Positions 16,928-61,996 of a stretch of 64,000 bases of DNA are shown here, in pieces (positions within the stretch are counted from its first letter, which is position 1; each line of letters opens with the position of its first letter). Made by a program: the position numbers and the translations under genes. Origin of the DNA: a virus; the IMG/VR virus record IMGVR_UViG_3300032313_000518, positions 46,969 through 110,968 of that record. One strand, 5' to 3'. The notes beneath the pieces were generated by a model, which was not told the origin of the DNA, made no database searches, and saw only the letters and a list, made by a program, of their open reading frames with translations.

Positions 16928-19900
16928 ATGCTAACAGAAGCAGAAAAAGCCGAAGCAAAACTAATTGGTCTTACAGAAGAACAATACCTAATGTTAAAAA
17001 AAAATAACACATTAGAATTGTATAAAGCTGCAGGTAATTTAGCAGATATTGGTAAAAAAATATCATCGGGTGAAATTAATTTGTTTCCTAATGGGTTAAA
17101 TATACCATTACAATTGTCAGCATTACAATTTGGTGATACTGTAATGCCATCTTATACTGTAGTTGAATATCCAGATGGTAGACCTCCTTTTATTTATAAT
17201 TCAGCAAACCCATACAACGTACCAAAAAGCGAGAAAGAATGGAAAGACATATTAAAAGGTGCAATATCTGCTAAAAATGATTTAACTGGTGATATACCAT
17301 TACCACCGGTGGACCCAACTGATTTAAATTTACCAGAAAATACTATATTTACTGTATTTGTTGCATTAAATGGGGCTAATAATTCTGCAGCTTTTATTAA
17401 AGGTGGTGAAACGTTTAGATTAAAACAAGGTTTAAATGAAATAAAAGTAGATGTTGGTACAAAACTTACATTTATAAGTGCTGACCAAAAACTATATAAC
17501 GTATCGGAAATAAATGTAGTATCCGCTAATGTAAAGAAAAATGTAAAATCATCAAAAACTACTCCAATTATTACATGTGAAATTACTGTGAATGGGGTTT
17601 ACAATGTAGATATTTATACGGAATCGAATACAGTAACTCAAACTACAAATCTTATTTTACCTGAAATAAAATTAGGAAACTCCGAATTAAAACGCTACAA
17701 TATAAATACTGATACTGGAATACCAATTGGTATTATTAAAATAGGTAAAGTTGAGCAAGTAACGGCATACATAAATCGAAAATCTTATAAATTTACAAAT
17801 TTAGGCACAGAAACAAATGCAGTAATTGTAATACCTGATTCTGCATTTACACAAGTTGGAAGCTATAAAACTATTTTAGTTCCTTATAATTCAAGTGTAG
17901 GTGATGGTAATGCGTTAGAATTTCAAATTAGTGCGGTTGAGGAAATGAATGTGGGTACGCCTGATATACGAAACATAACATTCCCATCAGTATTATATGG
18001 ACCAGATTATGTTGGTACGGATGTTGATTTTCAAATTTCTTATGATTCTGTTGATACTGATTTTGTACGAATAAAAAAATTAGGAGGAACATCTTATATT
18101 CAAGTAACCAAAGCTGGAACTGTTGATTTAAATTTTAAAAAATTATTAGAATTAGATGGTACGCAAATTTCGGAAGATGAAGATAAAATACGTCTTAGTT
18201 TAGTTTTAACTCCATATAATGTAAGTGGATATAAAGTATTAACAGGACTGGGAGAAAGAATTTCAATTAACTTTGATAAAGGTAATTTAACAATACCAAG
18301 ATCAGTAGCTATCAATAGAATTGCGGAAGCATTTACTTCTCAATTTGATGATAGTATATTTGTAGATGAAACTTCAAAATACCTTACTCACTTATTACAC
18401 TTAGGTAATGGTGATAATAAAGTAATTACAACTTGGGTTGGTAGTCAAAATTCTTTAATTGTAAAATTATATGAACCACTATCAACTACCATACAAACAA
18501 ATAGACAAGTTTGGATTTCAAAAGTTCAATCAAATCCAATTGTTGAAACCGTAACTTTAAATGAAACTGTACAAAATGTATGTACACCATTAAAAGGACC
18601 TAATTTTTCATTAGAGCCTGATAATGGAATTGGGTATAAAGTATTTAATGATTTAATTGGTAGTGGTTCTAATACTTCAAATGATTTAGTAACAAAATAT
18701 TTAGAAACATCTGGTATTGATACTACTAAATTAAGTATAGCTTACGCAAGTGGTTCATCTACATCAGCCGAATATTTGTTTACTAATTTTGTAAACTTTA
18801 GTTCTGCTGAAGAAAGAGTTAATAATTTCTTTTATAAAATACAATTATTACAAAATTATAAAACCAGATATTCCGAATTAATAGCAGATACATTTATATC
18901 ACCATATGAAGATGTTGATGCAACCATATTAACAGAAGATGGATTGTTTAAAACAGTTACTGAAGATGGTATTTTTGAAATTAACTGGGAAATTTTTCAA
19001 TATAAAGGTGTTGCTCAATTAGAAGAAGCAAAAATTTTATTAAATACAATAAATGGTATAATTAAAGGATTTGATGGATTTGAAAATTGGTTATATACAG
19101 ATACCACATATACAACATTATCGTACCCAAAAACAACATATACTCATCCTATAACAGGCTTAACAACAAACATTATCAAACCAACAACTGATAATGATGT
19201 AATTAGTTGGTATGAATATATTATAGATGTTTGTGCTGAATTTGATAAATACAATCCAAATTATTTAGTAAATAATATACCAACATTTATAAGCGAAGAC
19301 TATGATAACAGTGATTTCATAGTGTTCTTAGATATGATTGGGCAGCATTTTGATATTATTTGGGTGTACATAAATGCTCTAAAAGGAAATAAAATATTAG
19401 AAGAAAAACAAATAAAAGGGGTTACTAATAAATTTATTTACAACCTATTGGAATCAATGGGTTGGGAAGGTAAGCGAGCGTTTGATTCGGAGTTTTTATG
19501 GGAATATGTATTTGGAACTAATAAAGAAGGTTTTCAAAAATATTCAATGCCATTAGAAGATGCAAACAATCAAGTTTGGAGAAGAATCTTAAACAATCTA
19601 CCATATCTATTAAAACATAAAGGAACATCAAGAGCTATGAAAGCTGTAATGGCTTGTTATGGCGTACCCCAATCCATGTTGACGATAATGGAATTTGGTG
19701 GACCTCAAGACCCAACCAAAAGTGGTAGTACTAAATTTACATTTGATGATAGAACTGCTGCAATTAAATTAAAAAATGATTCATCTGTTGTTGTACCTTG
19801 GAAATCGGTAAATGGTTCATACCCTAAAAGTATTGAATTCAGAATAAAACCTGATAGTGTAAAAAATACTAGAATAATATCAAGTTCTCAATTCTATTTA

Positions 19901-21924: not shown

Positions 21925-22554
21925 ATGGCATATTTAGATAATTCAGAAATAACAGTAGATGCAATTTTAACCAAAAAAGGTAGACAAAAATTAGCATCCG
22001 GTCAATCTCTAAACATTACAAAGTTCGCTTTGGCAGATGATGAAATTGATTATACATTATACGAACCAGCACATCCAAAAGGTTCGGCATATTATGATTC
22101 TGCAATCAGAGCAATTCCTGTAACGGAAGCATCTCCTGATGAGACTCAAGTATTAAGATATAAATTGGTAACTTTACCAAAAGGAACAACACAAATCCCA
22201 GTGGTTAAATTGGGTGTAACTGCAATTGCAGTAAATCAAACCGAAGGTGGTGTGGGATTAACTCCAACAACTTCTCCTGCTGGAAATCAAAATTCTGGAT
22301 ACACTGTTGTATTAGCAGACCAAAGAGCAGGTACATTAACTGTAACTTCTGGAGCAACTGGAACTGGAACTATTCCTGTATTCTTAGGTGAAGAAATTAC
22401 AACAACCGCACAGGTAGTTAGTGGTTTAGAATTTAGATTTACTCCAAATCCTAACTTAACTATTTCTGTTGCAACAACAATAACGGTTTATGGTAATGAA
22501 ACAGGAGGTTCTCAAACAATACCGGTAACTGTAACATACAAACAAACAGTATAA
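21925..22554 (+). CDS. Virion structural protein (baseplate/tail-collar-like)
   Basis: DAILTKKGRQKLA..ITKFALADDEIDY motif. Confidence 0.65.
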   Translation: MAYLDNSEITVDAILTKKGRQKLASGQSLNITKFALADDEIDYTLYEPAHPKGSAYYDSAIRAIPVTEASPDETQVLRYKLVTLPKGTTQIPVVKLGVTAIAVNQTEGGVGLTPTTSPAGNQNSGYTVVLADQRAGTLTVTSGATGTGTIPVFLGEEITTTAQVVSGLEFRFTPNPNLTISVATTITVYGNETGGSQTIPVTVTYKQTV

Positions 22555-45825: not shown

Positions 45826-46515
45826 ATGGCAAAAGAATTCAATCGAAAGTACATGCATCCGACTCGTAGAAAGTTATCGGATATGGTATTACGTGGGCAG
45901 GAATATGAAACAAATGCACAAATCTCATTATCAGTAAATCCAGAAGCTAATATTACTAGAGAAGTTGGAGAAACTTGGACTGATTCAAATGGAGTTCAAT
46001 GGGAACAAAAAAAATGGGGTAAGGAGCAAATATCATCATTAAGTGAAACAATGTCTAGTGTAAGAAATTACCTATCAGAACTTAATAGATGTAAAGGTAC
46101 TGAATGTAAAACAATCAAATTAGGTAGAGTAGATAAAAAGTTAATATCTAAAACAGGATATTGTACAACTTGTCTTGCTAAAAAAGAATTTGAAATAAGA
46201 GTAGATGGGTTGTGGGATGCGTATGAAACCTACAAATTAACATCAAATATGATTGACCACGGAACTGATGTACTTGCTCAATTTAATCAAGCATATAAAG
46301 ATGCAAGACAGGAATATGAGTATGTAAACGAAAATGGTACAACTGAAAAGTGGACTATGGAAAGACCTGTTGAGGAATTAAAAGCAGAAATATTGCTTGA
46401 AATTACCAACGTAGAAGCTGAAGTTGCACAAGTTACAAAATTAAGAAATGAAGCTTGGGAGTTACTAAAAGATAAAAATTACGATTTAGTAAAGCCACCT
46501 AAAGATTTAGTATGA
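45826..46515 (+). CDS. Cys-containing protein upstream of TerL (possible small terminase by position only)
   Basis: CKGTEC and CTTC motifs; ATGA overlap with TerL. Confidence 0.5.
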   Translation: MAKEFNRKYMHPTRRKLSDMVLRGQEYETNAQISLSVNPEANITREVGETWTDSNGVQWEQKKWGKEQISSLSETMSSVRNYLSELNRCKGTECKTIKLGRVDKKLISKTGYCTTCLAKKEFEIRVDGLWDAYETYKLTSNMIDHGTDVLAQFNQAYKDARQEYEYVNENGTTEKWTMERPVEELKAEILLEITNVEAEVAQVTKLRNEAWELLKDKNYDLVKPPKDLV

Positions 46516-48104
46516 GTAACGGAATACAACAAAAGAAATCTCTAAAGCAAATCATAGGAGAAGAATACATAAAGTGTGCTAGTGACCCTATCCACTTTAT
46601 GAAGAAATATTGTATGATTCAGCATCCGGTGAAAGGTAAAATACCATTTCATCTATTTCCTTTTCAAGAGAAAACACTAACCGAATTTAAGAACCATAGA
46701 TTTAATATCGTTCTTAAATCTCGTCAAACTGGTATCTCCACATTATCAGCAGGTTATGCGTTGTGGAGTATGTTATTCAATACGGATTTTAACGTATTGG
46801 TTATTGCAACAAAACAAGAGGTTGCAAAGAACTTAGTAACAAAAGTAAGAGTAATGTACGAACTATTACCATCGTGGTTAAAGGGTGGTGCATTGGAGGA
46901 TAACAAACTCTCACTTAAATTACAAAATGGTTCACAAATCAAAGCAATTGCTTCCTCACCTGATGCAGGACGTTCGGAAGCCCTATCACTACTAATATTT
47001 GATGAGGCAGCTTTCATTGATGATATCGATGAGATTTGGAAAGCAGCTCAATCTACACTATCAACGGGTGGGGCGTGTATTGCCCTTTCAACTCCCAATG
47101 GTGTGGGTAATTGGTTTCATCAAACGTGGAGTGATGCAGAATCTTCTATAAATCCATTCAACACAATTCGTTTACATTGGACAGTTCATCCAGAAAGAGA
47201 CCAGACGTGGAGAGATGAGCAAGAAAGATTGTTGGGAAGAAAAGGAGCTGCACAAGAATGTGATTGTGACTTTATTTCATCTGGAGATAACGTAATTGAC
47301 CCAGAACTCTTAATGTTCTACAAAGAAACTTATGTTCAAGACCCTGTTTCAAAAGGTGGTATAGATAATAACTTTTGGAGATGGGAATATCCTACATCAA
47401 ATGCATCTTATATGGTTGTAGCTGACGTTGCAAGGGGAGATGGTGCCGATTATTCTACTTTTCACGTTATGGATATTGTAACTGCAACTCAAGTTGGTGA
47501 ATACAAAGGTAAGATGGATACAAAAGATTTTGGAAATTTGTTAGTAGCAATATCAACTGAATATAATGATGCACTATTAGTAATTGAAAACGCAAACATT
47601 GGTTGGGCAACAATACAACAGGTAATAGATAGAGGGTATCGTAACCTATTCTATATGAGTAAAGATTTGAAATATGTAGATGTTGAGAATCAATTAAACA
47701 ATAGATACAGAGCACAAGATAGAGGATTGGTTGCTGGTTTTTCAACAACATCAAATACAAGACCTTTAATCATATCAAAGTTGGATGATTATTTCAGAGA
47801 GAAATCCGTTATAGTTCGTTCATCTCGATTGATTGATGAATTGTTTACATTTATATATTCAAGCGGTAGAGCACAAGCTATGAAGGGTTATAATGATGAC
47901 TTGGTAATGGCATTCTCTATTGGATTATGGGTAAGAGATACCGCACTTCGTTTAAGACAAGAAGGTATTGATTTAACAAAAATGGCAGTAGCTGGAATTA
48001 CTGCAAATACATACGAAGGTGTGTATTCACCATCTAATATGGATGAGAATCCTTGGAAGATGAGAGTGGGTGATACGTTCGAAGATTTATCCCAATGGTT
48101 ATAG
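46512..48104 (+). CDS. terL: Terminase large subunit (gp17-like)
   Basis: KSRQTGIST, LIFDEAAF, STPNG, ADVARG.G.DYS, DDLVMA. Confidence 0.95.
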   Translation: MSNGIQQKKSLKQIIGEEYIKCASDPIHFMKKYCMIQHPVKGKIPFHLFPFQEKTLTEFKNHRFNIVLKSRQTGISTLSAGYALWSMLFNTDFNVLVIATKQEVAKNLVTKVRVMYELLPSWLKGGALEDNKLSLKLQNGSQIKAIASSPDAGRSEALSLLIFDEAAFIDDIDEIWKAAQSTLSTGGACIALSTPNGVGNWFHQTWSDAESSINPFNTIRLHWTVHPERDQTWRDEQERLLGRKGAAQECDCDFISSGDNVIDPELLMFYKETYVQDPVSKGGIDNNFWRWEYPTSNASYMVVADVARGDGADYSTFHVMDIVTATQVGEYKGKMDTKDFGNLLVAISTEYNDALLVIENANIGWATIQQVIDRGYRNLFYMSKDLKYVDVENQLNNRYRAQDRGLVAGFSTTSNTRPLIISKLDDYFREKSVIVRSSRLIDELFTFIYSSGRAQAMKGYNDDLVMAFSIGLWVRDTALRLRQEGIDLTKMAVAGITANTYEGVYSPSNMDENPWKMRVGDTFEDLSQWL

Positions 48105-48154: not shown

Positions 48155-48592
48155 ATGATTAAGTTAAAATCTTTACTGAACGAAGATGAGTATATTGACC
48201 AAGCATATGCTATGGGTGATACTCCGCAAGATAATCCAATTGATGATTATGATGAATTGGATGTTGAGCAAGAAGATATGGATGATTTTATTACATTCTT
48301 AAAAGGGTACTCAAACGAATTGGATGAGGCGAATTGTAATTGTGTATTTGAAGCAGAATATCAGGGAAGAGAAGTAAAGTTGGGTAAACCGATGCAAGGC
48401 GATGTGAAGAAATTTAAGGTCTACGTCAAAAACCCAAAAACAGGTAAGGTGATTAAGGTGAATTTTGGACAGAAAGGAATGGTTATTAAAAAAGACAATC
48501 CAGCAAGAAGAAAATCATTTAGAGCAAGAATGAATTGTGATAATCCCGGTCCAAGAACAAAGGCAAACTATTGGAGTTGCCGAAAATGGTAA
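48155..48592 (+). CDS. Probable internal head protein: acidic pro-region plus basic C-terminal domain
   Basis: MIKLKSLLNE leader; KKFKVYV...RRKSFRAR.NC...YWSCRKW domain. Confidence 0.6.
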   Translation: MIKLKSLLNEDEYIDQAYAMGDTPQDNPIDDYDELDVEQEDMDDFITFLKGYSNELDEANCNCVFEAEYQGREVKLGKPMQGDVKKFKVYVKNPKTGKVIKVNFGQKGMVIKKDNPARRKSFRARMNCDNPGPRTKANYWSCRKW

Positions 48593-48603
48593 AATAGAAA
48601 ATT

Positions 48604-50367
48604 ATGGCAGAAGTAAATGATGATAGAAGTTTTTTTGGTAGATTAAGAAAGTTATTCTCAACACAAGCTGTTGTGCGTATTGATAAAGACGGTAGACGTA
48701 AAGTTGTAGATACCGATGAGAGACAATTCAATACAAACTTTATGAACCTACGTGATAGGTACACAAAGTTACAAAAATCATTCTACGAACAACAAGGTGG
48801 TGCACAATCAATGGCATATGCACAAGTTCGCAGAGAATTATTCAGAGATTATGATGCAATGGATAATGACCCGATACTTTCATCGGCATTAGACATTTAT
48901 GCCGATGAATCAACTACAAAAGATGAGTATGGTGAGGTATTAACAATCAAATCATCTAACGAAAATGTAAAAGAAGCATTACACAACCTATTCTACGATG
49001 TAATGAACGTAGAGTTTAACTTATGGCCTTGGGTTCGTAATATGGTTAAGTATGGTGATTTCTTTTTGGCATTGGAGATTGGTGAGAATGCTGGTATTGT
49101 AAACGTAAAACCATATTCAACATATAATACTGAAAGATTAGAAAATACTGACCCACAAAATCCTAACTATGTTAAGTTTAAAGTGGAGTTGGATGAGATT
49201 GGTAAAAAAGAATATGAGAACTATGAAATGGCTCACTTCCGTTTACTTTCAGATACAAACTTCCTACCATACGGAAAATCAATGTTGGAAGGTGCACGAA
49301 GAATTTGGAAACAATTAACTCTTATGGAAGATGCGATGTTAATTCATCGTATTATGAGAGCACCTGAAAAGAGAGTATTCAAAATTGATATTGGTAACAT
49401 TCCACCGCAAGAGGTTGATAACTATATGCAAAAGATTATCAACAAAATGAAAAAAACTCCATTCGTTGATAGAAATACAGGAGATTACAACTTAAAATAC
49501 AATATCCAAAACCTTACGGAAGATTTCTTCTTACCTGTTAGAGGTGGAGATAGTGGTACATCAATTGAAAACATTAGTGGTTTAGAATATACTGCAACGG
49601 AAGATATTGATTACTTAAAGAACAAATTATTTGCTGCATTGAGAGTACCAAAGGCTTACTTATCATATGATGAGAACGTAAATGGTAAAGCAACTCTTGC
49701 GGCAGAGGATGTTCGTTTTGCAAGAACTGTGGAAAGAATTCAAAGAACGGTGGTAAGTGAATTAACTAAAATAGCAATTGTTCACTTAGCAGCTCAAGGT
49801 ATTGATGATGCTGAAATGGTAAACTTTGAATTAACTCTTACAAACTCATCTACAATCTATGAGCAAGAGAAAGTAAATCTTTGGAGTGAGAAAGTAAGAT
49901 TGGGAACTGATATTAAAGCAATGAATATGTTATCTACGGATTGGGTATATCATAATGTATTTAATATGAGTGAAGAGGAGATAAATACTGAAAGAGCTAA
50001 GGTAATATTAGATATCAAAGATAGATTTAGACACAACTCAATTGAACAGCAAGGTGAAGACCCGGCAAATCCACCAAAACAACAAAATGTGGAGCAGGAG
50101 ATAGAGGAGTTGAAATTGGGTATGAATCAAGACAAAGGTGGTAGACCAAGAGAAGGTAATACTTATGGTAAAGATAAGCATCCATATGGTAGAGACCCTT
50201 TGGGTGATAAAGAAAATCACGGAGAAAGAAAAAGAGAAAATAGAAACATACCAAGTGCAAAATTAGCAAAAGAATATGTGAATGGAATATCAGCTAAAAG
50301 AAAGGTTTTGATTGAAAAATCAGGTATGTTAGATGAAAAAAATCTATTAGATGACACGAAAATTTAA
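48604..50367 (+). CDS. gp20: Portal protein (gp20-like)
   Basis: LMEDAMLIHRIMRAPEKRVFKIDIGN, EDFFLPVRG, L.VPK. Confidence 0.95.
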   Translation: MAEVNDDRSFFGRLRKLFSTQAVVRIDKDGRRKVVDTDERQFNTNFMNLRDRYTKLQKSFYEQQGGAQSMAYAQVRRELFRDYDAMDNDPILSSALDIYADESTTKDEYGEVLTIKSSNENVKEALHNLFYDVMNVEFNLWPWVRNMVKYGDFFLALEIGENAGIVNVKPYSTYNTERLENTDPQNPNYVKFKVELDEIGKKEYENYEMAHFRLLSDTNFLPYGKSMLEGARRIWKQLTLMEDAMLIHRIMRAPEKRVFKIDIGNIPPQEVDNYMQKIINKMKKTPFVDRNTGDYNLKYNIQNLTEDFFLPVRGGDSGTSIENISGLEYTATEDIDYLKNKLFAALRVPKAYLSYDENVNGKATLAAEDVRFARTVERIQRTVVSELTKIAIVHLAAQGIDDAEMVNFELTLTNSSTIYEQEKVNLWSEKVRLGTDIKAMNMLSTDWVYHNVFNMSEEEINTERAKVILDIKDRFRHNSIEQQGEDPANPPKQQNVEQEIEELKLGMNQDKGGRPREGNTYGKDKHPYGRDPLGDKENHGERKRENRNIPSAKLAKEYVNGISAKRKVLIEKSGMLDEKNLLDDTKI

Positions 50368-51873: not shown

Positions 51874-52080
51874 ATGGCAGGAATAACAAAACAAAGACTA
51901 AAAGAATTAGTTAAGGAAGTAATGGTAGAAGAAACTGAATATCAGGCATTCTTCCAAAAGGCATTAGATAAAGCTGGTAAATCTATCCCATCTATGAGTG
52001 ATGATGAAAAAAAGGCATTCTTTGATAAAATTGATTCAGCTTGGAATGGTAAGGGTGAAAAATCCGAATCCGTAAAATAA
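51874..52080 (+). CDS. Small probable prohead core/internal protein
   Basis: ITKQRLKELVKEVMVEE leader. Confidence 0.6.
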   Translation: MAGITKQRLKELVKEVMVEETEYQAFFQKALDKAGKSIPSMSDDEKKAFFDKIDSAWNGKGEKSESVK

Positions 52081-52087
52081 TAACAAA

Positions 52088-52675
52088 ATGAAGAATCTTT
52101 TAATAGAAACCAAATTATTCGAAGGAAAGGTAGAAGAGGATGCTGGTGGTAGAACTATCGTTAAAGGTGTTCTTCAAAGAGCTGGTGCGGAGAATCAAAA
52201 TGGTAGAGTATATCCAAAGCCTACATTAATGAGAGAAGCTCAAAAATATGAGCAACTTATCAAAGAACGTAGAGCATTAGGTGAATTAGACCACCCCGAT
52301 TCAACTGTAATCAATTTAAAGAACGTATCACACAATGTTAGAGAAATACATTGGGAGGGAGATGATTTATGTGGTACGGTTGAAATCCTTGCAACCCCAT
52401 CTGGTAATATCCTTAAAGAATTACTTAAAGCTGGTATCCTATTAGGTATATCATCAAGAGGTATGGGTTCTACAAAACAAATGGAAGGAAATAAAGTAGA
52501 AGTTCAGGAAGATTTTGAGCTTATAGGTTGGGATTTTGTTTCTAATCCATCTACACATGGTGCATTTATGGTACCTGTAAACGAATCAGTAACAAAACAA
52601 ATTGGAACTGATGTTTGCGGAGACTATTGCAAAGCACAAGATTTAATGAGAGAAATTATAACTGAAATATCATAA
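52088..52675 (+). CDS. gp21: Prohead protease (gp21-like)
   Basis: NQNGRVYP, ALGELDHP, GISSRGMGS, WDFVSNPS.HGA. Confidence 0.95.
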   Translation: MKNLLIETKLFEGKVEEDAGGRTIVKGVLQRAGAENQNGRVYPKPTLMREAQKYEQLIKERRALGELDHPDSTVINLKNVSHNVREIHWEGDDLCGTVEILATPSGNILKELLKAGILLGISSRGMGSTKQMEGNKVEVQEDFELIGWDFVSNPSTHGAFMVPVNESVTKQIGTDVCGDYCKAQDLMREIITEIS

Positions 52676-53232
52676 TGAGCAAGCCATTTGACATATACGA
52701 TTATGTACACAACAATAAGATTAGCTTAAAAGTAGAAGCTAATAGAAAAGCAACTAATGTAACTAAGGGGTACAATGACATTCGTAAAACTAATTTAAAC
52801 GAAGTAAAGATTGTAAACGGAAAGTTTAGCATTAAAGAAAGTTTAAACGGAGATAAAAGACCTTTGAGTAATGAGGTTAAGAAACACTTTTTAGAAATTA
52901 TCTCTACATACAACACATTTCAAGAGCAAATGCAAAGAGCATCCGATTTAACGGAGGTTGCAAATACTTTGGGTGGAATTGTTGAAGCAGCAAAAGAATT
53001 AACTTTAAGAGAAACTGCCGATTGGTTTGATGGTGTGACCGTTAAACGTAATATGGGTGAATTGGATAAGATGGATAAAAGTTTCCAAAAGTTCGCAGTA
53101 GAAGCAAAGGCAATGGATGAAAGATTACATTCATTATACGAAGATATGGGACACATTCTATCTCGTTACTATGAGATTGCGGATATTCAGCCGGATGTTA
53201 TGAGAGAGAGATTGGGTTTAAGAAAAAAATAA
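52675..53232 (+). CDS. Head-region hypothetical protein
   Basis: 185-aa ORF coupled to the protease; LNE, IKE and LRE sites. Confidence 0.65.
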   Translation: MSKPFDIYDYVHNNKISLKVEANRKATNVTKGYNDIRKTNLNEVKIVNGKFSIKESLNGDKRPLSNEVKKHFLEIISTYNTFQEQMQRASDLTEVANTLGGIVEAAKELTLRETADWFDGVTVKRNMGELDKMDKSFQKFAVEAKAMDERLHSLYEDMGHILSRYYEIADIQPDVMRERLGLRKK

Positions 53233-53233
53233 G

Positions 53234-53851
53234 ATGATTCGTTTAACCGAAATGTTTAACTTTGCGGATAGTTCTACTTATGGTAAATTAAAACCACAAT
53301 TAGGACAGGTAATGTCTAATCCTTATGCAAGAGCATTTGCTCCGCAAGTTAAGGAGGGTGATGAACCTGACCACGAAGTATCTATGGCAAATAACACTTT
53401 AGATGCAATCATTAAACATGCTACCGAATTAAAATCTAAAATAGGTGGCAACGAAAAGAACATACCTGCGTGGATTCAAGACCACATTACAAATGCAGGA
53501 AACTTTATTTCACAAGCAGCATCCAATTATCACGAATACGGAAAGAACGAATCAAAGCAACAAATCAAAGAAGCAACTGCAAAGTTTGATTTTGCTCAAG
53601 CGAATGGTATTCAATTCTATGTATCATCTCCAAATAACAATATAGTTTTATTACCACAATCAAAAAAAGAAATTGAAAAGATTGATATGATAAAACAAAA
53701 ATTGGGTGATGGTGCAGATGACGATTTTTTATCATTATTAAAAATCCGTTTAGAAAAGAAATTAGGAATTTCAGTAATACCAAATAAAAGATATGGTGGA
53801 GCTGGTTACGCATTTGACATTGATACTGACAAATTATTTAAGAAATTATAA
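53234..53851 (+). CDS. Probable internal head protein, modular
   Basis: MIRLTEM leader; VKE/G before the DHEVSMA...PAWIQ..IT module; IKE/A before a second module. Confidence 0.6.
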   Translation: MIRLTEMFNFADSSTYGKLKPQLGQVMSNPYARAFAPQVKEGDEPDHEVSMANNTLDAIIKHATELKSKIGGNEKNIPAWIQDHITNAGNFISQAASNYHEYGKNESKQQIKEATAKFDFAQANGIQFYVSSPNNNIVLLPQSKKEIEKIDMIKQKLGDGADDDFLSLLKIRLEKKLGISVIPNKRYGGAGYAFDIDTDKLFKKL

Positions 53852-53852
53852 A

Positions 53853-55502
53853 ATGATTAGATTAAACCAACTACTTAAAGAGGAAACGTTTACCGCAACT
53901 AATAAATCAACTGGTAAAACTTCTGTATTCAAATCTAAAGATAGTAGAGATGCTGCAATCAAAGCAGGTACACATGATGCTATGAAAGATAAAGAACAAC
54001 CAAAATCAGCACCAAGAGCAGCTGGTAATAGTATGTTTGGTGGAGATTATGCAAAAGATAGAGGTGGTGAGGCTCCTAAAGCTGATACTACTTCAACTCC
54101 TAAAGTAGATATGGGTGTAGATTCAGTTGTATATAACAAAAGAACAAAGACAGTTGGTATTGTACGAATGGGAGATGAAAGAGGTGAAACTAAAACTGAT
54201 GCAGATGGTAATGTAAATACCGATGAGTTAGAACCATACAATCCAATGAAGTATCCACACCAAAAGGATGCACAAGTTGCACCATCTACAACAAAAGAAA
54301 TAGATAGTAGAGGATTGTACAAACCATTTTCTCAATCAGCTAACGAACCTAAAAAAATAAATAATCCAACTGAAGCACTTCCAAAAGAAATTTATGCTAA
54401 AATGGATAATGAAGATAGTGATGCTGGTGAAATGGATTATTTATCTTCAACTGATGGTAGTATAAAATATGGTATAGCTAAAGAAGGTGATAAATATTAT
54501 GTAACATTAGGTACTGAAGAAGGTGAAATATTAAAATCTTTTGGAAAAACTAAAGATGCTGGAGAAGCTGCACAAATATTTATGAAAAATTTAGATGCTG
54601 TAAAATCTAAATATAATTTGGATGTGGATTCAAACGAACCAAAAGCAGAACCAGCTAAAAAAAGACCTGGTAATCCTACTGTAAATAAAGAAGCTAAGAA
54701 AACCGCAGAAAAATATGGTATTACTCCTCAAAAGTTGGGTAATGAAAAATATAAAGAAGCAATGTTACAAGCAGCAGTGTCTGCATTAACTGATTCAAAC
54801 TTCCACAGTGAAGCAAGAGAATTAGTTGCAGCAATTGAAGGAAAGCCTGAATTTGCAAAAAAACCGGAGTACCCATCGATGAAAGACCCTAAGTATAAAG
54901 AAAAAATGGCAGATATTCGTAAGAATTCCGCAGATGGTTCGATTTATATGAATGGTACTGGTAAGATTGATGATTATGGTACGGATGTATCACAAGCATC
55001 TGGATGGGATGGTGTTGATGCAGCGGATAGTATTGCATTTACATTAAGAATGAATGGTTTCCATAAAGAAGCAGATTTGATTCAATCGGTATTTGATAAT
55101 AAACCATATATGAAAAATGAGGGTACAATTAAATTAACAAAGTTAATGGAAAATGACCCTTGTTGGAAGGGATACAAACAAGTTGGAATGAAAGATAAGA
55201 ATGGTAGAGAAGTTCCAAATTGTGTACCTGAAGGAGTTGTTAAAGAAGCAGGTATTCCTAAATTATTTTTAAAAATAGAAGCAGTTAAAAAGAAAATAAA
55301 AGAATTAATGGATGCAAGAAAATCTGCAGTAGTTCCATATAATAAAGAAACTGACCCTAAAAAGAAAGAAGCATTAAAACAACCTTTAATTAAATTGACA
55401 GCACAAATAACATCATATCAAAAGAATTTATTAAATCTATTGGATATGGAAGAAAAATATATTCAAACTTTAAATCAAAACGATGAGTTAGAATTATCTT
55501 AA
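53853..55502 (+). CDS. Probable internal head polyprotein; start corrected to ATG 53853
   Basis: MIRLNQLLKEE leader; internal IKLTKLME/N before CWKGY..VGMK...VPNCVP; VVKE/A before a coiled coil. Confidence 0.6.
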   Translation: MIRLNQLLKEETFTATNKSTGKTSVFKSKDSRDAAIKAGTHDAMKDKEQPKSAPRAAGNSMFGGDYAKDRGGEAPKADTTSTPKVDMGVDSVVYNKRTKTVGIVRMGDERGETKTDADGNVNTDELEPYNPMKYPHQKDAQVAPSTTKEIDSRGLYKPFSQSANEPKKINNPTEALPKEIYAKMDNEDSDAGEMDYLSSTDGSIKYGIAKEGDKYYVTLGTEEGEILKSFGKTKDAGEAAQIFMKNLDAVKSKYNLDVDSNEPKAEPAKKRPGNPTVNKEAKKTAEKYGITPQKLGNEKYKEAMLQAAVSALTDSNFHSEARELVAAIEGKPEFAKKPEYPSMKDPKYKEKMADIRKNSADGSIYMNGTGKIDDYGTDVSQASGWDGVDAADSIAFTLRMNGFHKEADLIQSVFDNKPYMKNEGTIKLTKLMENDPCWKGYKQVGMKDKNGREVPNCVPEGVVKEAGIPKLFLKIEAVKKKIKELMDARKSAVVPYNKETDPKKKEALKQPLIKLTAQITSYQKNLLNLLDMEEKYIQTLNQNDELELS

Positions 55503-55524
55503 ATCAAATAAAATATAATTAAAG

Positions 55525-55552
55525 AAAAGCTTGGTAATCCCAAGCTTTTTTT
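55525..55552 (+). terminator. Rho-independent terminator overlapping a promoter
   Basis: AAAAGCTTGG-TAATC-CCAAGCTTTT plus T tract. Confidence 0.8.
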
Positions 55553-55561
55553 GTATATTTG
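55530..55561 (+). promoter_or_regulatory. Bacteroidota-type promoter (CTTG-N20-TATATTTG)
   Basis: -7 box at 55554-55561, 8 nt before ATG 55570. Confidence 0.7.
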
Positions 55562-55569
55562 TGTTATCT

Positions 55570-56901
55570 ATGATAAAACCATTTTCAATACTCGATACCC
55601 GCACCAAAGAATGGCAAGACCGTAAACGTTGGTGGATACAAACCTATAATATCAAATCAGAATTAGGTAGGGAGGATACTCAATCGAATAGTAAGTTTTG
55701 GGATGATGAAGATACTGTTTCGGTATTTGATGCTACTCTATGTGAAAAAATGTATGAGTGGTTTGTTCCAAAGAGTGGTAAAGTATTAGACCCATTTGCA
55801 GGTGGAAGTGTTAGGGGAATTGTAGCAACGGAAATGGGATTCAAATACGATGGAATTGATATATCACAAACACAAATAGAAGCAAATAGAAAACAATCCG
55901 ATAAACCTCGATGGATGGGTGGGGATAGTTACCTATTATTAAATGTATTAGAAGGAAATACCTATGATTTTGTATTCACTTGCCCACCATACTACGATTT
56001 GGAGGTATATAGTGATAATGCGAATGATTTATCAAATATGGCGGATGCGCAATTTGATGATAGATATATTTCTATATTACAAAAATCAGCAGAAAAGTTA
56101 AAGAACAATAGATTCTTTGCAGTTGTGGTATCCGAAGTTAGAGAGGTATCAAAGACAGGAGATTACAAAATTGGAAAGTATAGAGGATTGGTAAACAAAA
56201 CTATTTCAGCAATGGAAGAAGTTGGATTGCACTTCTATAACGATATGGTTCTATTCAACTCACAACATCAGGCTGGAAGAGTGGTAGATACATATTTCAA
56301 ACGTAATCGTAAGGTAGCATCTGTTCATCAAAACGTATTAGTATTTGTAAAAGGAAATCCTGATTTGGCAACGGAAGATATTGAATGGGATGGTACTTAC
56401 AAATGTGTAGTTGGTGGAAAACAATACAAATCATTCAGAGAAGCAGCAATTTCAATCAACCCAAATGAGTTAGTAGCATCTGAAGTAGAAAGAAGATGCC
56501 TTTCACCAAAAACCAAATACAAAGGGTGGCAGGTAATTGGTGAGGAAACATATCCTATCTTAAAATATTGTATAGATGGGTATTACTTTGAATCTCCTGT
56601 ACAGGCAGCAGAGTACATTGAATATAGTGAAACTGAAATTCGTAATCGCTTAGAATCAAAAGCTGACCATTATAGACATTGGAAAAAGTTGGATACTCCA
56701 ATTACAAATATAACTTACGATTCACATGAAAGGACTCTAAAGGATATTCAAGTTAGAGATAAGATACATACGATAAGTTGTGAAGGAGAACTCTTCTACA
56801 CACTAAAGGATGCCGGTGAAAGATTTGGTGTATCGGATGAACGAATCAGACAGAAAATCCAATCGGACAAACATACTGATTACTTTTACTTATTTTCATA
56901 A
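55570..56901 (+). CDS. Amino (N6-A/N4-C) DNA methyltransferase with three C-terminal NUMOD1-like HTH repeats; start corrected to ATG 55570
   Basis: VLDPFAGG (motif I), FTCPPYY (motif IV); repeats GKQYKSFREAA, GYYFESPVQAA, GELFYTLKDAG. Confidence 0.8.
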   Translation: MIKPFSILDTRTKEWQDRKRWWIQTYNIKSELGREDTQSNSKFWDDEDTVSVFDATLCEKMYEWFVPKSGKVLDPFAGGSVRGIVATEMGFKYDGIDISQTQIEANRKQSDKPRWMGGDSYLLLNVLEGNTYDFVFTCPPYYDLEVYSDNANDLSNMADAQFDDRYISILQKSAEKLKNNRFFAVVVSEVREVSKTGDYKIGKYRGLVNKTISAMEEVGLHFYNDMVLFNSQHQAGRVVDTYFKRNRKVASVHQNVLVFVKGNPDLATEDIEWDGTYKCVVGGKQYKSFREAAISINPNELVASEVERRCLSPKTKYKGWQVIGEETYPILKYCIDGYYFESPVQAAEYIEYSETEIRNRLESKADHYRHWKKLDTPITNITYDSHERTLKDIQVRDKIHTISCEGELFYTLKDAGERFGVSDERIRQKIQSDKHTDYFYLFS

Positions 56902-56908
56902 AACTTAA

Positions 56909-56916
56909 TATTTATT
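56909..56916 (+). promoter_or_regulatory. Putative late promoter TATTTATT
   Basis: Octamer variant 24 nt before ATG 56941. Confidence 0.6.
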
Positions 56917-56940
56917 CCATATAACCAAAGGAATAATATT

Positions 56941-58995
56941 ATGCCTGCAAAATCAAAAGCTCAACAACGTTTTATGGGAATGGTTCATGCCGTACAAAAA
57001 GGAGACATGGATGCCCCATCATCGGAAGTTGAAAAAGCAGCTGATTCAATGAGTGATGCAGACGCAAAAGATTACGCATCAACCAAACACAAAGGTTTAC
57101 CCAACCATGTGAAAAAAGAAAATATGGAAAAAGAATTAAAAGAAATCATCCGTCAAACATATAGAGAGAGTTTGAGAGAATCAGTAAACGAAGCTAAGAT
57201 ACAACCAAAAGATGATTGGGGAGTTAGATTAGTTGTAGCTATTAATAATAATGTTGCTGCATTACATACATCCGTTATAAGAGAAAAAAAAGATGTACAG
57301 CAAGCAGTTGCTGCTTTTGGTAATGTGTTAAAAAATGCTATTAAAGAAACTCTAAAGCACAAATACAAACCACATCCAAAATATACTGAAGCTGATAGTA
57401 AAATAAAAACATTTATTTCTGAACTTAAAAAGTTTGAAAATATTGTAGATATGGTTATTTCTAAACCAACAAAATCTGGTATTGTAAAATTGGATGATGC
57501 TTGGAGAAGTATTTGGAATCATAAATTTGGTTCGGCAATTGCCCTATCTGGTGATTTGTTTAATAGTATTATAGAAAACGAATCGGTAAACGAAGCAAAA
57601 TACCCAACCAATTTATATGTTGGTTCTGTAATTTATGGACAAGGATTTACTGGATTAAAAGGAATTGAAGGTGGTAAATACTACAAAGTTGTTGAAATGG
57701 ATGATTATTCAGCAACATTAGTACCATGTGATGAAAAAGGTAAGATAACAGGTTCAAAAAAAGTTAGACATAAATTAGATTCAATCGAAGGTGGTATCAA
57801 AACTGCTAAAAGAGGAGATGAAAACGGAATTGTCATCGAATCAGTAAACGAATCAATATCACATGAAGCAATGGGAATCGCTTCAATGACTAACACTAGA
57901 AAAGAAGCAGTTCAAAAGTTTATTGATGATAACAACTTAAATGCAAAAGAAATATTAACTCACGTTACCAAAGGTAAATTGCCGGAGAGAATTCGTTTTG
58001 TTCAGGCATTAGTTGGAACTCCTAATAATTCTTCTTTCAAATGGTATGTAAAAAATTACGCAAACGAATCGGTAGTAAACGAAGCAATTGATATTAACCA
58101 TTGGAAAAAATATGCAAATGGTGGAGGGCCATTGTTTAGCCGTAAAGTAAAAACTCAACGTGAATTTAATACAGAATTTCGTGAGGTAGCTTATGCTTAT
58201 AATAATGACCCAGATAGTCGTGAAAACAGACTTAAACGTGATAAAATTGAAAAAGTAAAAAAATTAGCACAGGAATTTTTTGATAAAGAGGGTTTTATCA
58301 CATCTAATATTATTGATGAAATGTGGTCTGCAATGGTATCTGGTAAGATAAAGGAAGGCAAGGTAACCGAAGGTAAGAAAGCATTCAAAATAAATCCACC
58401 AATCGGTAGTTCAAAATATAGTATTAGTGCATATGATGGTATAACAAAACACAAAGATGGTAGTCCTTTTTACAATATTCTTATTTTTAAGAACAAAGCA
58501 GATTTAGAAAGAAGAGCTAATTATTTTAGAAGCGAAAAATACATTGAAGAAGCAGTAGTAACCGAAGGAAAGAAAGCATTCAGAATAAATCCACAAATCG
58601 GTAAAGCAAAATATAGTATTAGTGCTCACAATGGTGTATCAAAACACAAAGATGGTAGTGATTTTTGGGATATTCTTATTTTTAAGAACAAAGCGGATTT
58701 AGAAAGAAGAGCTAAATATTTTAGAGGTGAAAAATACATTGAAGAAGCAGTAGTAACGGAAGGAAGATACGATGCAGATTTGGATAAAATTGAAGCAGTA
58801 GTTAAAAACGCAACATCTTTTATGAATGTAGGTTCTGAATTGAAGAAAGCAGGAATTAAATATGATTTCACAACTTCAATGATTCCTATGTATATGATTA
58901 AAGTATCTGGTAACACTATTGCAATTTGTAATAAGAAATATGCAGCTGGTGCGGAGAGAGAAGTGAACGATATAGCAATTGGTTTATTAAATTAA
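56941..58995 (+). CDS. Modular polyprotein (DUF3008-like N-terminus plus seven cassettes) with repeated ESVNE/VTE junctions
   Basis: MPAKSKAQQ...ASTKHKGLP; junctions at 57178, 57580, 57838, 58066, 58354, 58546 and 58741. Confidence 0.75.
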   Translation: MPAKSKAQQRFMGMVHAVQKGDMDAPSSEVEKAADSMSDADAKDYASTKHKGLPNHVKKENMEKELKEIIRQTYRESLRESVNEAKIQPKDDWGVRLVVAINNNVAALHTSVIREKKDVQQAVAAFGNVLKNAIKETLKHKYKPHPKYTEADSKIKTFISELKKFENIVDMVISKPTKSGIVKLDDAWRSIWNHKFGSAIALSGDLFNSIIENESVNEAKYPTNLYVGSVIYGQGFTGLKGIEGGKYYKVVEMDDYSATLVPCDEKGKITGSKKVRHKLDSIEGGIKTAKRGDENGIVIESVNESISHEAMGIASMTNTRKEAVQKFIDDNNLNAKEILTHVTKGKLPERIRFVQALVGTPNNSSFKWYVKNYANESVVNEAIDINHWKKYANGGGPLFSRKVKTQREFNTEFREVAYAYNNDPDSRENRLKRDKIEKVKKLAQEFFDKEGFITSNIIDEMWSAMVSGKIKEGKVTEGKKAFKINPPIGSSKYSISAYDGITKHKDGSPFYNILIFKNKADLERRANYFRSEKYIEEAVVTEGKKAFRINPQIGKAKYSISAHNGVSKHKDGSDFWDILIFKNKADLERRAKYFRGEKYIEEAVVTEGRYDADLDKIEAVVKNATSFMNVGSELKKAGIKYDFTTSMIPMYMIKVSGNTIAICNKKYAAGAEREVNDIAIGLLN
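58363..58752 (+). repeat. 195-bp tandem duplication (65-aa cassette x2)
   Basis: Units start at 58363 and 58558; a third VTEG junction starts at 58753. Confidence 0.9.
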
Positions 58996-59023
58996 AAAAA
59001 ACAAAAATATATAAAAACTAAAG

Positions 59024-59058
59024 AAAATTAAACATAATTTTATGTTTAATTTTTTTTT
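59024..59058 (+). terminator. Perfect 14-bp inverted repeat plus T tract (terminator or operator)
   Basis: AAAATTAAACATAA-TT-TTATGTTTAATTTT. Confidence 0.55.
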
Positions 59059-59210: not shown

Positions 59211-60311
59211 ATGGCAAGTTCAAAATTATTAAAAGAAGCAATCGCTGACGCTAAAGCTGTACGTGAAACTGCTATTGCCAATGCTAAAATTGCATTAGAA
59301 GAAGCATTTACTCCTCGTTTACAATCTATTCTTTCTAGAAAATTACAAGCCGAAATGGAAGGTGATGAAGACGAAGAAGCAGATATAACCGAAGATAATG
59401 ATACATCTACTGGAATTGGTACTGGTGATAACAAACAACCGGCAGATGCGGCAAATACAGCGCAGACTGACTTAAGTGGTATTTCTAAGCAATCAGCATC
59501 AGCTGGTGATGAGTTAGAAGGACACGATGAAGTTGATGATTTAATGGAAGGCGAAGACGAAGAAGCACCGGCAATGGAAGGTGAAGATGAGGCTGAGTAC
59601 GCAGCAGAAGGTGAAGAAATGGCACCAGAGGCTGATGAAGATGAATTAGATTTGGAATCTATCATCAGAGAATTAGAAGACGAAATCGGAGTTGAAGAAT
59701 CTGATGAGTTAGGATACGAAGACCCAACAGGCGTTGAGAACGCATACGAAGGTGAAGAAGAAGCTCCAGCAGCAGAAGCTCCAGCGGAAGATGAAATGGA
59801 AGCTCCAGCGATGGAAGGAGAAGAAGAAGAAACTATCGATTTAGACGAAATCCTTCGTGAGATGGGTTACGGAGATGATGAAGAAGTTTCTGAAGAAGAA
59901 GAAGCAGGAAACGAAGAAGAAATGGCAGCAATGCAATCTGAATTGAAAGAAGCATATTCAACTATTCAATCTTTGAGAAAAACTATCAACGAAGTAAATT
60001 TATTAAACGCTAAATTACTTTACACTAACAAATTGTTCAGAGGATATAATCTAACTAATGAGCAAAAAATTAAAGTTGTAGAGAATTTAGACAGAACTTC
60101 TAACGTAAGAGAAGTTAAATTGGTTTACGCAACATTATCTGAATCAATGAAATTCACTGGTACTGAAAGAAAAGTAGCAGCTAAGAAAAGCATAACTGAA
60201 GGGTTAGCATCTAAGCCAACTGCATCTACTGCACCAGCAAAACAAATTATTTCAGAAAATACAAATGAATTAGCAAATCGCTTTAAGCAATTAGCTGGTA
60301 TCATTAAATAA
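59211..60311 (+). CDS. Prohead core scaffolding protein (gp22-like)
   Basis: Very acidic, C-terminal coiled coil, directly upstream of the major capsid gene, many (L/I)xE sites. Confidence 0.8.
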   Translation: MASSKLLKEAIADAKAVRETAIANAKIALEEAFTPRLQSILSRKLQAEMEGDEDEEADITEDNDTSTGIGTGDNKQPADAANTAQTDLSGISKQSASAGDELEGHDEVDDLMEGEDEEAPAMEGEDEAEYAAEGEEMAPEADEDELDLESIIRELEDEIGVEESDELGYEDPTGVENAYEGEEEAPAAEAPAEDEMEAPAMEGEEEETIDLDEILREMGYGDDEEVSEEEEAGNEEEMAAMQSELKEAYSTIQSLRKTINEVNLLNAKLLYTNKLFRGYNLTNEQKIKVVENLDRTSNVREVKLVYATLSESMKFTGTERKVAAKKSITEGLASKPTASTAPAKQIISENTNELANRFKQLAGIIK

Positions 60312-60337: not shown

Positions 60338-61996
60338 ATGGCAAATTTTGATTTATCCAAGTTAATGGAAGGCAAAAACCCACAAGCAGTAATGTTGGCT
60401 GAAACACGTCAATTGAAATCTAAGTGGGAGAAAACCGGTCTATTAGAAGGTATGAAAGATAGAGACCAACACTCTATGGCAGTTCTTTTAGAGAACCAAG
60501 CTAAGCAATTGTTGGACGAGGCAACTCAAACTGGTACTTCTTCTGGTTCAGAAGAGTGGAGTGGTGTAGCTTTACCTTTAGTAAGAAGAATCTTCGGTGA
60601 GATTGCTTCTAAAGAATTCGTTAGTGTACAACCTATGAACTTACCTTCTGGTCTTGTATTCTTCTTAGATTTCAAATATGGCTCAGCACAAGGAGCAGCA
60701 GGACAATTCGGTGGAAAATCACTTTTTGGTGGTACTAACGCAACTGGTTCAGCAGCTAACTTTGGTAGAACTGATGCAGCAACAGGTGGTTTATATGGTG
60801 AAGGCCGTTATGGTTATTCAGTAAACGATGCTACTGCAACTATTACTACTACTCAAGTAAATGGTACAATCACTTCAGCATCTGGTGTAACTTGGTCTGA
60901 AGTTGGATATGATTCAGCAATTTCTGCATCAGTTTCGGCTGGTAAAGTATTTAAATTAACTGTATCTGGTTCAGCAATCGCTTCAACTTTTGATTCTAAT
61001 GCAGTTCGTTCTACATTAGTAACAAACGCTGGTGTATTCGCTAACTTAAACCAATACAACTATTACAACTCAACTTCTGGATTAGCGGTATTATACGTTT
61101 CTGGTTCTACTTTAGCAGCAGCTGGTGGTCCTTCAAACACTATCGTTTACTCTGAAGTTCCTGTAGCTTATGATAGAGGAGATTTCGAAGATTCAACTGC
61201 AAACTCTGCTGGTAACACAACAACTGCATTGGATATCCCTGAAATCGACTTAGAATTGAAATCAGAGGCAATCGTTGCTAAGACTCGTAAGTTGAAAGCA
61301 GTTTGGACTCCTGAATTAGCACAAGACTTAAATGCATATCACTCAATCGATGCAGAAGCTGAATTAACTTCTATGTTATCTGATTATATCTCATTAGAGA
61401 TTGACTTAGAAATCTTAGATATGTTAAAGAGCAACGCATTGACTACTGAATACTGGTCTGCAACTATTGGTGAGGAATTACTTAACAATGGTGCAACTGG
61501 ACAAGCAGCTTGGTCTACTGGTAACTCTTCATTGGCTTACCAAAAGAACACTTGGTTCCAGACTTTAGGAACTAAAATCAATAAGGTATCTAATAAGATT
61601 CACCAATTAACATTAAGAGGTGGAGCTAACTTCATCGTTGCTTCTCCTGATGTTTGTACTATCTTAGAATCTATTCCTGGATTCGTAGTAAACGCTGATA
61701 AAGATGCAACATCTTTCGCAGCTGGTGTAACTCAAGTAGGTGCTATGGCTAATCGCTACACTGTTTACAAAAACCCTTATATGACTTCTAACGAAATCTT
61801 ATTAGGATATAGAGGTAACAACTTCTTAGAGACAGGTGCAGTTTACGCTCCATATGTTCCTTTGATTATGACTCCTTTAGTGTACGACCCACAAAACTTC
61901 ACACCAAGACGCGGAGTTATGACTCGTTACGCTAAGAAAATGGTCCGTCCGGAATACTACGGAAAGATTTATGTTAAAGATTTACAAAACATCTAA
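60338..61996 (+). CDS. gp23: Major capsid protein (gp23-like)
   Basis: LPLVRR, VQPMNLPSGLVF, A.TRKLKA.WTPELAQDL.AYH..DAEAEL, YAPYVPL, GVMTRYA. Confidence 0.97.
   Translation: MANFDLSKLMEGKNPQAVMLAETRQLKSKWEKTGLLEGMKDRDQHSMAVLLENQAKQLLDEATQTGTSSGSEEWSGVALPLVRRIFGEIASKEFVSVQPMNLPSGLVFFLDFKYGSAQGAAGQFGGKSLFGGTNATGSAANFGRTDAATGGLYGEGRYGYSVNDATATITTTQVNGTITSASGVTWSEVGYDSAISASVSAGKVFKLTVSGSAIASTFDSNAVRSTLVTNAGVFANLNQYNYYNSTSGLAVLYVSGSTLAAAGGPSNTIVYSEVPVAYDRGDFEDSTANSAGNTTTALDIPEIDLELKSEAIVAKTRKLKAVWTPELAQDLNAYHSIDAEAELTSMLSDYISLEIDLEILDMLKSNALTTEYWSATIGEELLNNGATGQAAWSTGNSSLAYQKNTWFQTLGTKINKVSNKIHQLTLRGGANFIVASPDVCTILESIPGFVVNADKDATSFAAGVTQVGAMANRYTVYKNPYMTSNEILLGYRGNNFLETGAVYAPYVPLIMTPLVYDPQNFTPRRGVMTRYAKKMVRPEYYGKIYVKDLQNI

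Follow-up and report, generated by a model that had tools for sequence, protein, structure and literature searches.

This report concerns a gene of a T4-like phage whose product is built as an array of cassettes. The window, i.e. the whole stretch of DNA that was analysed (64,000 nucleotides; positions 46,969 to 110,968 of IMG/VR record IMGVR_UViG_3300032313_000518), comes from a 111-kb contig of an uncultured T4-like phage with a GC content of 32.5%, and the gene (P0001) begins at position 56941. The preliminary description of this DNA had divided the 684-residue product into eight modules; the open reading frame (ORF), the division and the sequences of the joints were all confirmed by a sequence check. 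The gene comprises the following features.

56941..58995, + strand: cassette-array gene P0001, 684 amino acids, leader plus seven modules
56947..57111, + strand: DUF3008 domain at residues 3-57, within the leader (Pfam PF11450, score 28.5 bits, cutoff 24, full profile covered)
57124..57189, + strand: amphipathic leader helix, residues 62-83, ELKEIIRQTYRESLRE (helix in the AlphaFold2 model; candidate capsid-targeting element)
57178..57192, + strand: junction 1, ESVNE/A, 15-nt word GAATCAGTAAACGAA (breakpoint in the relatives L006 and L008)
57193..57594, + strand: module 2, residues 85-218, four-helix bundle, isoelectric point (pI) 9.4, closed by junction 2 at 57580-57594
57595..57852, + strand: module 3, residues 219-304, beta-rich, closed by junction 3 at 57838-57852; stand-alone form P0223
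57853..58083, + strand: module 4, residues 305-381, five short helices, closed by junction 4, ESVVNE/A (58066-58083)
58084..58371, + strand: module 5, residues 382-477, closed by KVTE/G; in the sister phage L003 it sits in the gene adjoining the protease
58372..58761, + strand: modules 6 and 7, residues 478-542 and 543-607, a 65-residue tandem duplication, each copy closed by VVTE/G; stand-alone form P0210
58762..58992, + strand: module 8, residues 608-684, predicted local distance difference test score (pLDDT) of about 90; carried upstream of the protease by many relatives

The seven joints fall after E84, E218, E304, E381, E477, E542 and E607 and read, in order, ESVNE/A, ESVNE/A, ESVNE/S, ESVVNE/A, KVTE/G, VVTE/G and VVTE/G. 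Modules 6 and 7, identical at 52 of 65 positions, are the single duplication that had been reported, and the remaining modules belong to separate families. Behind the leader (pI 6.8) the seven modules measure 7-15 kDa each and are basic, with pI values of 8.0-9.65.

The modules are autonomous units. In an AlphaFold2 model of P0001 built from 111 relatives (predicted template modelling score 0.30), pLDDT falls below 50 at residues 70-91, 212-244, 283-304, 376-410, 442-478, 538-542 and 605-607. These stretches take in each of the seven joints, and no confident secondary-structure element runs across a joint in the model. Domains spanning the junctions, which the preliminary description had named among the observations that would refute its proposal, are thus not seen, confidence collapsing at seven of seven. 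Module 2 is modelled as a four-helix bundle, module 4 as a five-helix unit, modules 6 and 7 as three strands plus a helix, and module 8 as a well-predicted alpha/beta fold; modules 3 and 5 are the lower-confidence parts of the model.

Junction peptide and junction word

The junctions recur both as a peptide and as DNA. Exact copies of the word GAATCRGTAAACGAA occur three times in the 64 kb, at 57178, 57580 and 57838, and the fourth junction is longer by one codon (TCGGTAGTAAACGAA, ending at 58083), precisely as first described. When up to two mismatches are allowed, seven matches are found against a shuffle mean of 0.42, a number reached in none of 100 shuffles. At the peptide level, the pattern V[NT]E[AGS] is present nine times in the proteome scanned (136 predicted proteins of the 111-kb genome, 35.5k residues): seven times in P0001, once in the prohead protease, behind its catalytic domain, and once in an unrelated 209-residue ORF at 21925-22554. 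Across 257 relatives it was observed 659 times, where 14.6 occurrences are expected. All 12 of the (L/I/V/M)-x-E-(A/G/S) sites of P0001 lie at a joint or at most six residues upstream of one.

Placing module starts by their own conserved first residues gave a logo independent of the motif. Over 315 such starts, P1 is Glu in 312 (99%) and P3 is Val, Ile or Leu in approximately 98%, while P2 varies among Asn, Thr, Ser and Lys and P1' is mostly Gly, Ala, Ser or Thr. The gp21-type (L/I/V)-x-E motif is present at seven of the seven P0001 joints, which speaks to the motif and not to proteolysis. The Thr codons found at P2 include ACC, ACG and ACT; since the peptide pattern is kept where the codons differ, selection acts on the peptide. 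Asn-dependent self-cleavage or isopeptide chemistry at VNE was considered and ruled out, P2 being Thr, Ser or Lys in about one-fifth of the junctions. Co-variation between the junction motif and the protease lineage proved uninformative, as all lineages examined share the (V/I/L)-x-E class.

The junction DNA is, in addition, more constant than the peptide demands. Asn is encoded by AAC at all four of the Asn-containing junctions of P0001, against 32% AAC genome-wide, a bias already noted in the preliminary description. In 34 joints from 11 distinct arrays (viral contigs), Val is GTA in 34 of 34 (background 48%) and Asn is AAC in 29 of 30 (background 31%); these joints are related by descent, and the figures are therefore descriptive and carry no clean probability. 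The word lies within the reading frame, and no PeSL-like element (promoter plus stem-loop) was found at the joints in a promoter and terminator scan. Tandem junctions five residues apart (EESVNE/SIVNE/GR) occur in P0003, P0004, P0009, P0010 and others, and resemble the trace that would be left if two such words had recombined.

Cassette exchange among relatives

Relatives of P0001 are numerous, and they differ in the number and order of their modules. A word-indexed search returned 415 of them, with coverage of 13-78% and local identity up to 99%; exhaustive HMMER searching returned 3835 clusters (at 50% identity) with E <= 0.001, 983 of these at E <= 1e-10, and the matched stretches start and stop at module borders. 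When 120 relatives were cut at the motif and the resulting pieces were grouped by 80% reciprocal coverage, we obtained about 128 module families in 95 different architectures, far from the fixed ortholog architecture that would have spoken against the original proposal. Each P0001 module was found with 6-17 different left neighbours, module order is inverted in 12 of the 52 relatives that share at least two modules, and single modules are up to 90-99% identical across many contexts. The ends of BLAST segments fall within eight residues of a joint in 54-61% of cases, compared with 17% expected.

Cassettes are exchanged exactly at the junctions. Breakpoints in the DNA relative to the near-identical phages L003, L006, L008 and L014 coincide with junction words, as do the breakpoints of protein homology, and the suggestion that the repeats serve as points of cassette exchange is borne out by these breakpoints and by the architectures. 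For instance, the sister phage L003, whose flanking genes encode proteins 97-100% identical to those of the window, keeps colinearity as far as 58085, where joint 4 ends at 58083, and resumes at 58557 (joint 6 ends at 58566). Module 5 (58065-58357) is 98.3% identical in DNA to L003 4914-5206, part of a different gene that immediately precedes the protease. In L006, joints 1 and 3 contain insertions, and in L008 module 2 is deleted (57202 to 57580).

The gene directly upstream of the protease constitutes a second array slot, represented in the window by the following feature.

51874..52080, + strand: ORF68, the second array slot ("slot A"), of which only a 68-residue leader is left, with its stop inside the junction word GAATCCGTAAAATAA

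ORF68 ends in ...GEKSESVK, at which point L003 carries 541 more bases, and the L003 counterpart continues for two more cassettes, one of them being module 5 of the main array. Module 8 likewise occupies the upstream slot in many relatives. Arrays thus occupy two slots, which differ in their leaders and exchange cassettes. The shuffling persists in L011-L024, lineages without the methyltransferase gene that adjoins the array in the window; the block 52675-59000 is entirely missing from this lineage. The slot A genes of L009-L024 have leaders with one or two EF-hand/dockerin-like DxDxDG calcium-binding loops (P0101: PF00404, 9.9e-8).

Head gene cluster, leaders and stand-alone modules

The array gene is located inside the head gene cluster, with the protease on one side and the scaffold and capsid genes on the other. 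Several proteins of the cluster begin with a sequence resembling the capsid-targeting sequence (CTS) of T4. The genes of the cluster, apart from the array, are listed below.

46512-48104, + strand: large terminase
48155..48592, + strand: ORF145, CTS-like 10-residue leader MIKLKSLLNE
48604-50367, + strand: gp20-type portal (PF07230)
between portal and protease, + strand: ORF293, ORF188 and ORF68
52088..52675, + strand: S77 (T4 gp21-type) prohead protease (Pfam PF03420, 7.9e-26; phrog_207, 2e-50)
between protease and methyltransferase, + strand: ORF185, ORF205 and ORF569
53234..55502, + strand: ORF205 and ORF569, candidate head cargo (CTS-like starts MIRLTE, and MIRLNQLLKE at Met21)
55531-56901, + strand: DNA methyltransferase with an I-TevI-type DNA-binding domain, directly upstream of the array gene
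59211..60311, + strand: acidic scaffold-like ORF366 (by position and composition; counterpart in immuto; many (L/V/I)xE sites followed by A, G or S)
60338..61996, + strand: gp23-like major capsid protein (phrog_138)

With an S77 protease, a PF07230 portal and a gp23-like capsid protein close together, the cluster is a T4-like head module; the methyltransferase adjoining the array is not a head protein. A terminator hairpin at 55522-55552 (13-bp stem) overlaps the listed TTG start of the methyltransferase gene, and the real start is therefore probably later. Just 3' of the array stop, at 59010-59050, there is an AT-rich hairpin followed by a T-run, and a gap of 216 bp then separates it from the scaffold gene. 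The T4 late promoter TATAAATA was not found upstream of the array gene, and a sigma-70 promoter scan scored no better than shuffles. Judged by the capsid protein, Flavobacterium phage immuto (50%) and Microcystis phage Mel-JY01 (52%) are, together with Rhodothermus phage RM378, the nearest phages in culture; immuto and Mel-JY01 lack ESVNE arrays despite having the same head-gene order and (L/V/I)xE sites. The host of this phage group is probably of the Flavobacteriia type. A megablast search of phage records with the 16-kb head region gave no match.

Sites of the junction class are also present in the head proteins themselves, two of which had been pointed out at the outset. Two are found in the protease, namely LFE/G at residue 12 and VNE/S at residues 164-167 (52577-52588), and when the protease is aligned to the structure of T4 gp21 (5jbl), VNES stands opposite ITES. 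In the capsid protein, LME/G, LLE/G and LDE/A all fall within the first 62 residues, LDE/A at residues 59-62, and the alignment to mature T4 gp23 starts at residue 66. The scaffold-like protein is rich in such sites. Their positions are kept in relatives with identities of 63-99% in the capsid protein and of 58-99% in the protease, and, to judge from the alignments, they lie where T4 processes its own head proteins. In the cultured phage immuto, the scaffold (gp067, L034:12731-13972) contains a tandemly duplicated module of about 60 residues, with VNE/G and LEE/G before it and LAE/A after it, and gp079 contains a mini-module between SVNE/G and LKE/S.

The leaders are position-specific and of three kinds, i.e. 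DUF3008, the amphipathic helix, and a 10-residue MIKLKxLLxE found in relatives and in neighbouring ORFs. The P0001 domain belongs to DUF3008, as it exceeds the Pfam gathering score, and this domain, when present, is always N-terminal: 83 of the 257 relatives start with it. A 69-residue protein of cyanophage S-SCSM1, which consists of DUF3008 only, is 70% identical to P0001 residues 1-70; it is annotated in GenBank as a virion protein, and the S-SCSM1 paper bases such annotations on mass spectrometry of CsCl-purified particles. The helix motif (K/R/Q/E)(L/I/F)(K/R)x(I/L/V)(I/L/V)(K/R/G)...E is found in three of the 136 genome proteins, all of the head cluster, namely at the N-termini of ORF188 and ORF68 and at residues 65-84 of P0001. 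It is present in 125 of 257 family proteins and in all but two of these lies within the first 75 residues.

Single modules also exist behind the 10-residue leader. P0210 (71 residues) reads MIKLKDLIKE/GKKAFKINPP... and consists of module 6 followed by a stop, P0223 is MIKLASLLKE/ followed by module 3, and P0175 is MIKLKELLTE/ followed by a homologue of module 2; short stand-alone genes for module 6 make up three clusters in the word-indexed search. In the genome under study, CTS-like starts of 6-10 residues are found in ORF145 (MIKLKSLLNE), in ORF569 from codon 21 (MIRLNQLLKE), in a 250-residue ORF at G000 11859-12611 (MIKLKSILSE) and in ORF205 (MIRLTE), and these four are therefore candidate head cargo. 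ORF205 (53234-53851) and ORF569 (53793-55502) overlap as listed, and ORF569 probably begins at its codon 21, Met21 being at 53853. Both have modules in common with the array proteins of relatives.

Two further observations concern the cassette pool. A free-standing, leaderless gene of 106 codons, DUF7717-like, lies beside the helicase gene upstream of the window (G000 17270-17590; L035:6271-6588), and its product is 38-40% identical to the array cassettes P0007 380-472 and P0006 526-618. As one cassette family is thus both a leaderless gene outside the head cluster and putative head cargo, this hints that cassettes have functions of their own in the cell. Cys mini-domains (CWKGYKQVGMK...PNCVPE and RRKSFRARMNC...) recur at the C-termini of ORF569 (55200-55300) and ORF145 (48400-48592), in L002:5797-7167 and in L028:8853-11375; cyanophage S-RIM2 has both in its DUF3008 protein gp73, and the 840-residue L028 array opens with the first. 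Their recurrence suggests a domain pool for head cargo shared by marine and freshwater T4-like phages.

Proposed loading, processing and delivery of the array product

We consider it likely that P0001 is a head-cargo polyprotein which is loaded by its leader, cut by the S77 protease and reshuffled in frame at its junctions, and whose products are probably injected. The leader (DUF3008 plus amphipathic helix) would bring the chain into the assembling prohead core, as the CTS does for the internal proteins of T4, and the gp21-type protease would then cut after the Glu of each (V/I/L)-x-E junction. Cutting would free seven folded basic proteins, which would stay with the DNA in the capsid and probably enter the host with it. 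The junction word GAATCRGTAAACGAA would act as an in-frame micro-homology, by which cassettes could be deleted, duplicated, inserted or moved, between the two array genes and between phages, without loss of the frame or of the cut site. Targeting, cleavage, retention, injection and any anti-defence role are what we infer from the arrangement; packaging, cleavage by the prohead protease and injection are each plausible on the sequence evidence. The proposal in the preliminary description that the modules are packaged, cut apart and injected is strengthened because the motif-independent logo gives Glu at P1 and Val, Ile or Leu at P3, because the same modules exist singly behind a T4-CTS-like leader ending in xLxE, because the DUF3008-only homologue of the leader is, by annotation, a cyanophage virion protein, and because VNE/S of the protease aligns with ITE/S of T4 gp21.

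Several points weigh on the other side. (V/I/L)xE plus a small residue is a short motif, common in Glu- and Lys-rich proteins; P1' is Val, Met or Thr at some junctions; and the common descent of the joints limits what the codon bias can say. The putative targeting role of the leader is proposed by analogy with T4 and from its position. No member of the array family was found among cultured phages in the collections searched, and a tblastn search of 50,697 phage records with the array matched the DUF3008 leader only, in cyanophages. As to the function of the modules, Pfam and PHROGs returned only DUF3008 or the leader, and Foldseek (PDB, BFVD), VIA-align (48k chains) and the ESM Atlas returned only a generic four-helix bundle for module 2, although these whole-model searches barely probed the other modules.

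The last result bears on one alternative, namely that the chain is cleaved but its products are pieces of the core or scaffold, or small basic fillers that condense DNA, the shuffling being neutral churn. No match of P0001 to a known effector or anti-defence fold was found in Pfam, PHROGs or the fold searches; the modules are basic (pI 8-9.65), as are the DNA-associated internal proteins of T4 (PMC3012670); and T4 gp22, gp67 and gp68 are likewise cut at many sites (PMC7411985). We nevertheless regard this explanation as unlikely, given that the modules are kept as folded units, up to 90-99% identical in many contexts, that fillers have no need of about 128 distinct folded families, and that the free-standing cassette homologue beside the helicase gene suggests a function of its own.

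Cleavage itself is dispensed with if P0001 is an internal head or decoration protein of the beads-on-a-string type, in which the 77-kDa chain works whole and the junction is a flexible linker and recombination word. Low-confidence linkers between folded domains would suit any multidomain protein, and polyvalent phage proteins may be packaged unprocessed, e.g. the virion RNA polymerase of N4 (PMC5512222). A linker, however, has no need of an invariant Glu at P1 together with Val, Ile or Leu at P3 and a small residue at P1', and the nearly free order and number of the modules are hard to square with one integrated structure. Furthermore, since the same modules stand alone behind a 10-residue leader with the same xLxE/G, the free module can be argued to be the working unit. 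We think it quite improbable that the chain remains uncut. A further alternative makes the junction chiefly a DNA element, such as a hot spot of recombination or the target of a nuclease or recombinase, with an incidental peptide; we hold it to be very improbable. In its favour, the synonymous positions are frozen (GTA and AAC), breakpoints fall on the word and the neighbouring gene encodes an I-TevI-type DNA-binding domain. Against it, the peptide pattern is kept where the DNA differs (Val, Ile or Leu at P3; Asn, Thr, Ser or Lys, with several Thr codons, at P2; always Glu at P1), stand-alone genes arrive at the same xLxE/G with a different leader sequence, L011-L024 still shuffle without the methyltransferase gene, and a role for the DNA is in any case compatible with one for the peptide.

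If P0001 is indeed a processed head-cargo polyprotein, then in function it looks most like the internal-protein system of T4. The T4 CTS reads MKTYQEFIAE/A. In the T4 internal proteins IPI-III and in Alt, a CTS of 10-20 residues is removed by gp21 (PMC7411985; PMC3012670), and the internal-protein locus is hyperplastic (PMC3012670; PMC7411985; Repoila et al. 1994 as cited there). More generally, S77/gp21-family proteases cut after Glu in a three-residue x-X-E motif, and their cargo has N-terminal targeting propeptides (PMC5694885; PMC7411985; PMC3012670). The array resembles the T4 system in its T4-type head module with an S77 protease, in a small, basic and very diverse putative cargo that varies among close relatives, and in a leader ending in (L/I/V)-x-E followed by a small residue, with stand-alone relatives behind the 10-residue leader MIKLKDLIKE/G. 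It differs in that up to eight putative cargo units share one chain and one long leader (DUF3008 plus helix), and in that internal copies of the putative cut site are both the joints and conserved in-frame recombination words. No sequence similarity of the array to the T4 internal proteins was found.

Other systems share parts of this organization. The ejection proteins of phiKZ, 201phi2-1 and SPN3US are cut by gp21-related proteases after Glu in a three-residue motif and have long N-terminal propeptides, proposed as targeting signals, and the giant-phage protease strips its own C-terminal propeptide, which we count as a likeness (PMC5694885, PMC7411985); unlike the array, these genes yield one mature product each, without arrays of unrelated cassettes and without a junction word in common. 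In the polyvalent proteins (Iyer et al. 2017, PMC5512222), many unrelated modules make up one chain and mosaicism is extensive; packaging and delivery together with the DNA are predicted for them. Their definition, however, requires at least two recognised conflict or enzymatic domains per chain (metallopeptidase, ART, ParB, methylase, primase and others), and processing by embedded peptidases is proposed for them; P0001, with DUF3008 only in Pfam, the leader only in PHROGs and a generic helical bundle in fold searches, falls outside this definition, its modules have 65-134 residues, and its joints carry the putative site of a head protease that would act in trans. Short conserved words also flank variable segments as recombination points in the PeSL shuffling (PMC2839356, PMC4122927) and in the glycine-rich motifs of the gp38 adhesin (PMC3157838) of T4-type phages. 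PeSLs, however, lie between genes, combine an early promoter with a stem-loop and move genes as wholes, and the gp38 motifs shuffle loops within one fold. The word of the array, by contrast, is part of the coding sequence, preserves the frame and at the same time encodes a putative protease site between complete folded proteins. Full-text literature searches gave no description of such arrays and no paper mentioning DUF3008.

New with respect to the T4 model are therefore the cargo in one chain, the long leaders and the putative cut site that doubles as an in-frame recombination word. It is conceivable, though we would give it somewhat less than even weight, that the junction is dual-coded, the peptide being the cut site of the head protease and the DNA, conserved at silent positions, the micro-homology, which would make the array an integron-like, reshufflable kit of small injected proteins, which might plausibly act, for one, against host defences. 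Should cleavage and delivery hold, one late gene would supply many independent proteins at DNA entry, and the architecture would show how cargo can be re-assorted quickly without breaking the frame or the processing sites. The family is large, with about a hundred small, autonomously folding modules, and its putative cut sites, leaders and stand-alone versions provide an experimental handle. The array could also serve as a natural model for packing several foreign proteins into capsids, and the internal-protein model of T4 would be extended from separate genes with a 10-residue signal to polyproteins.

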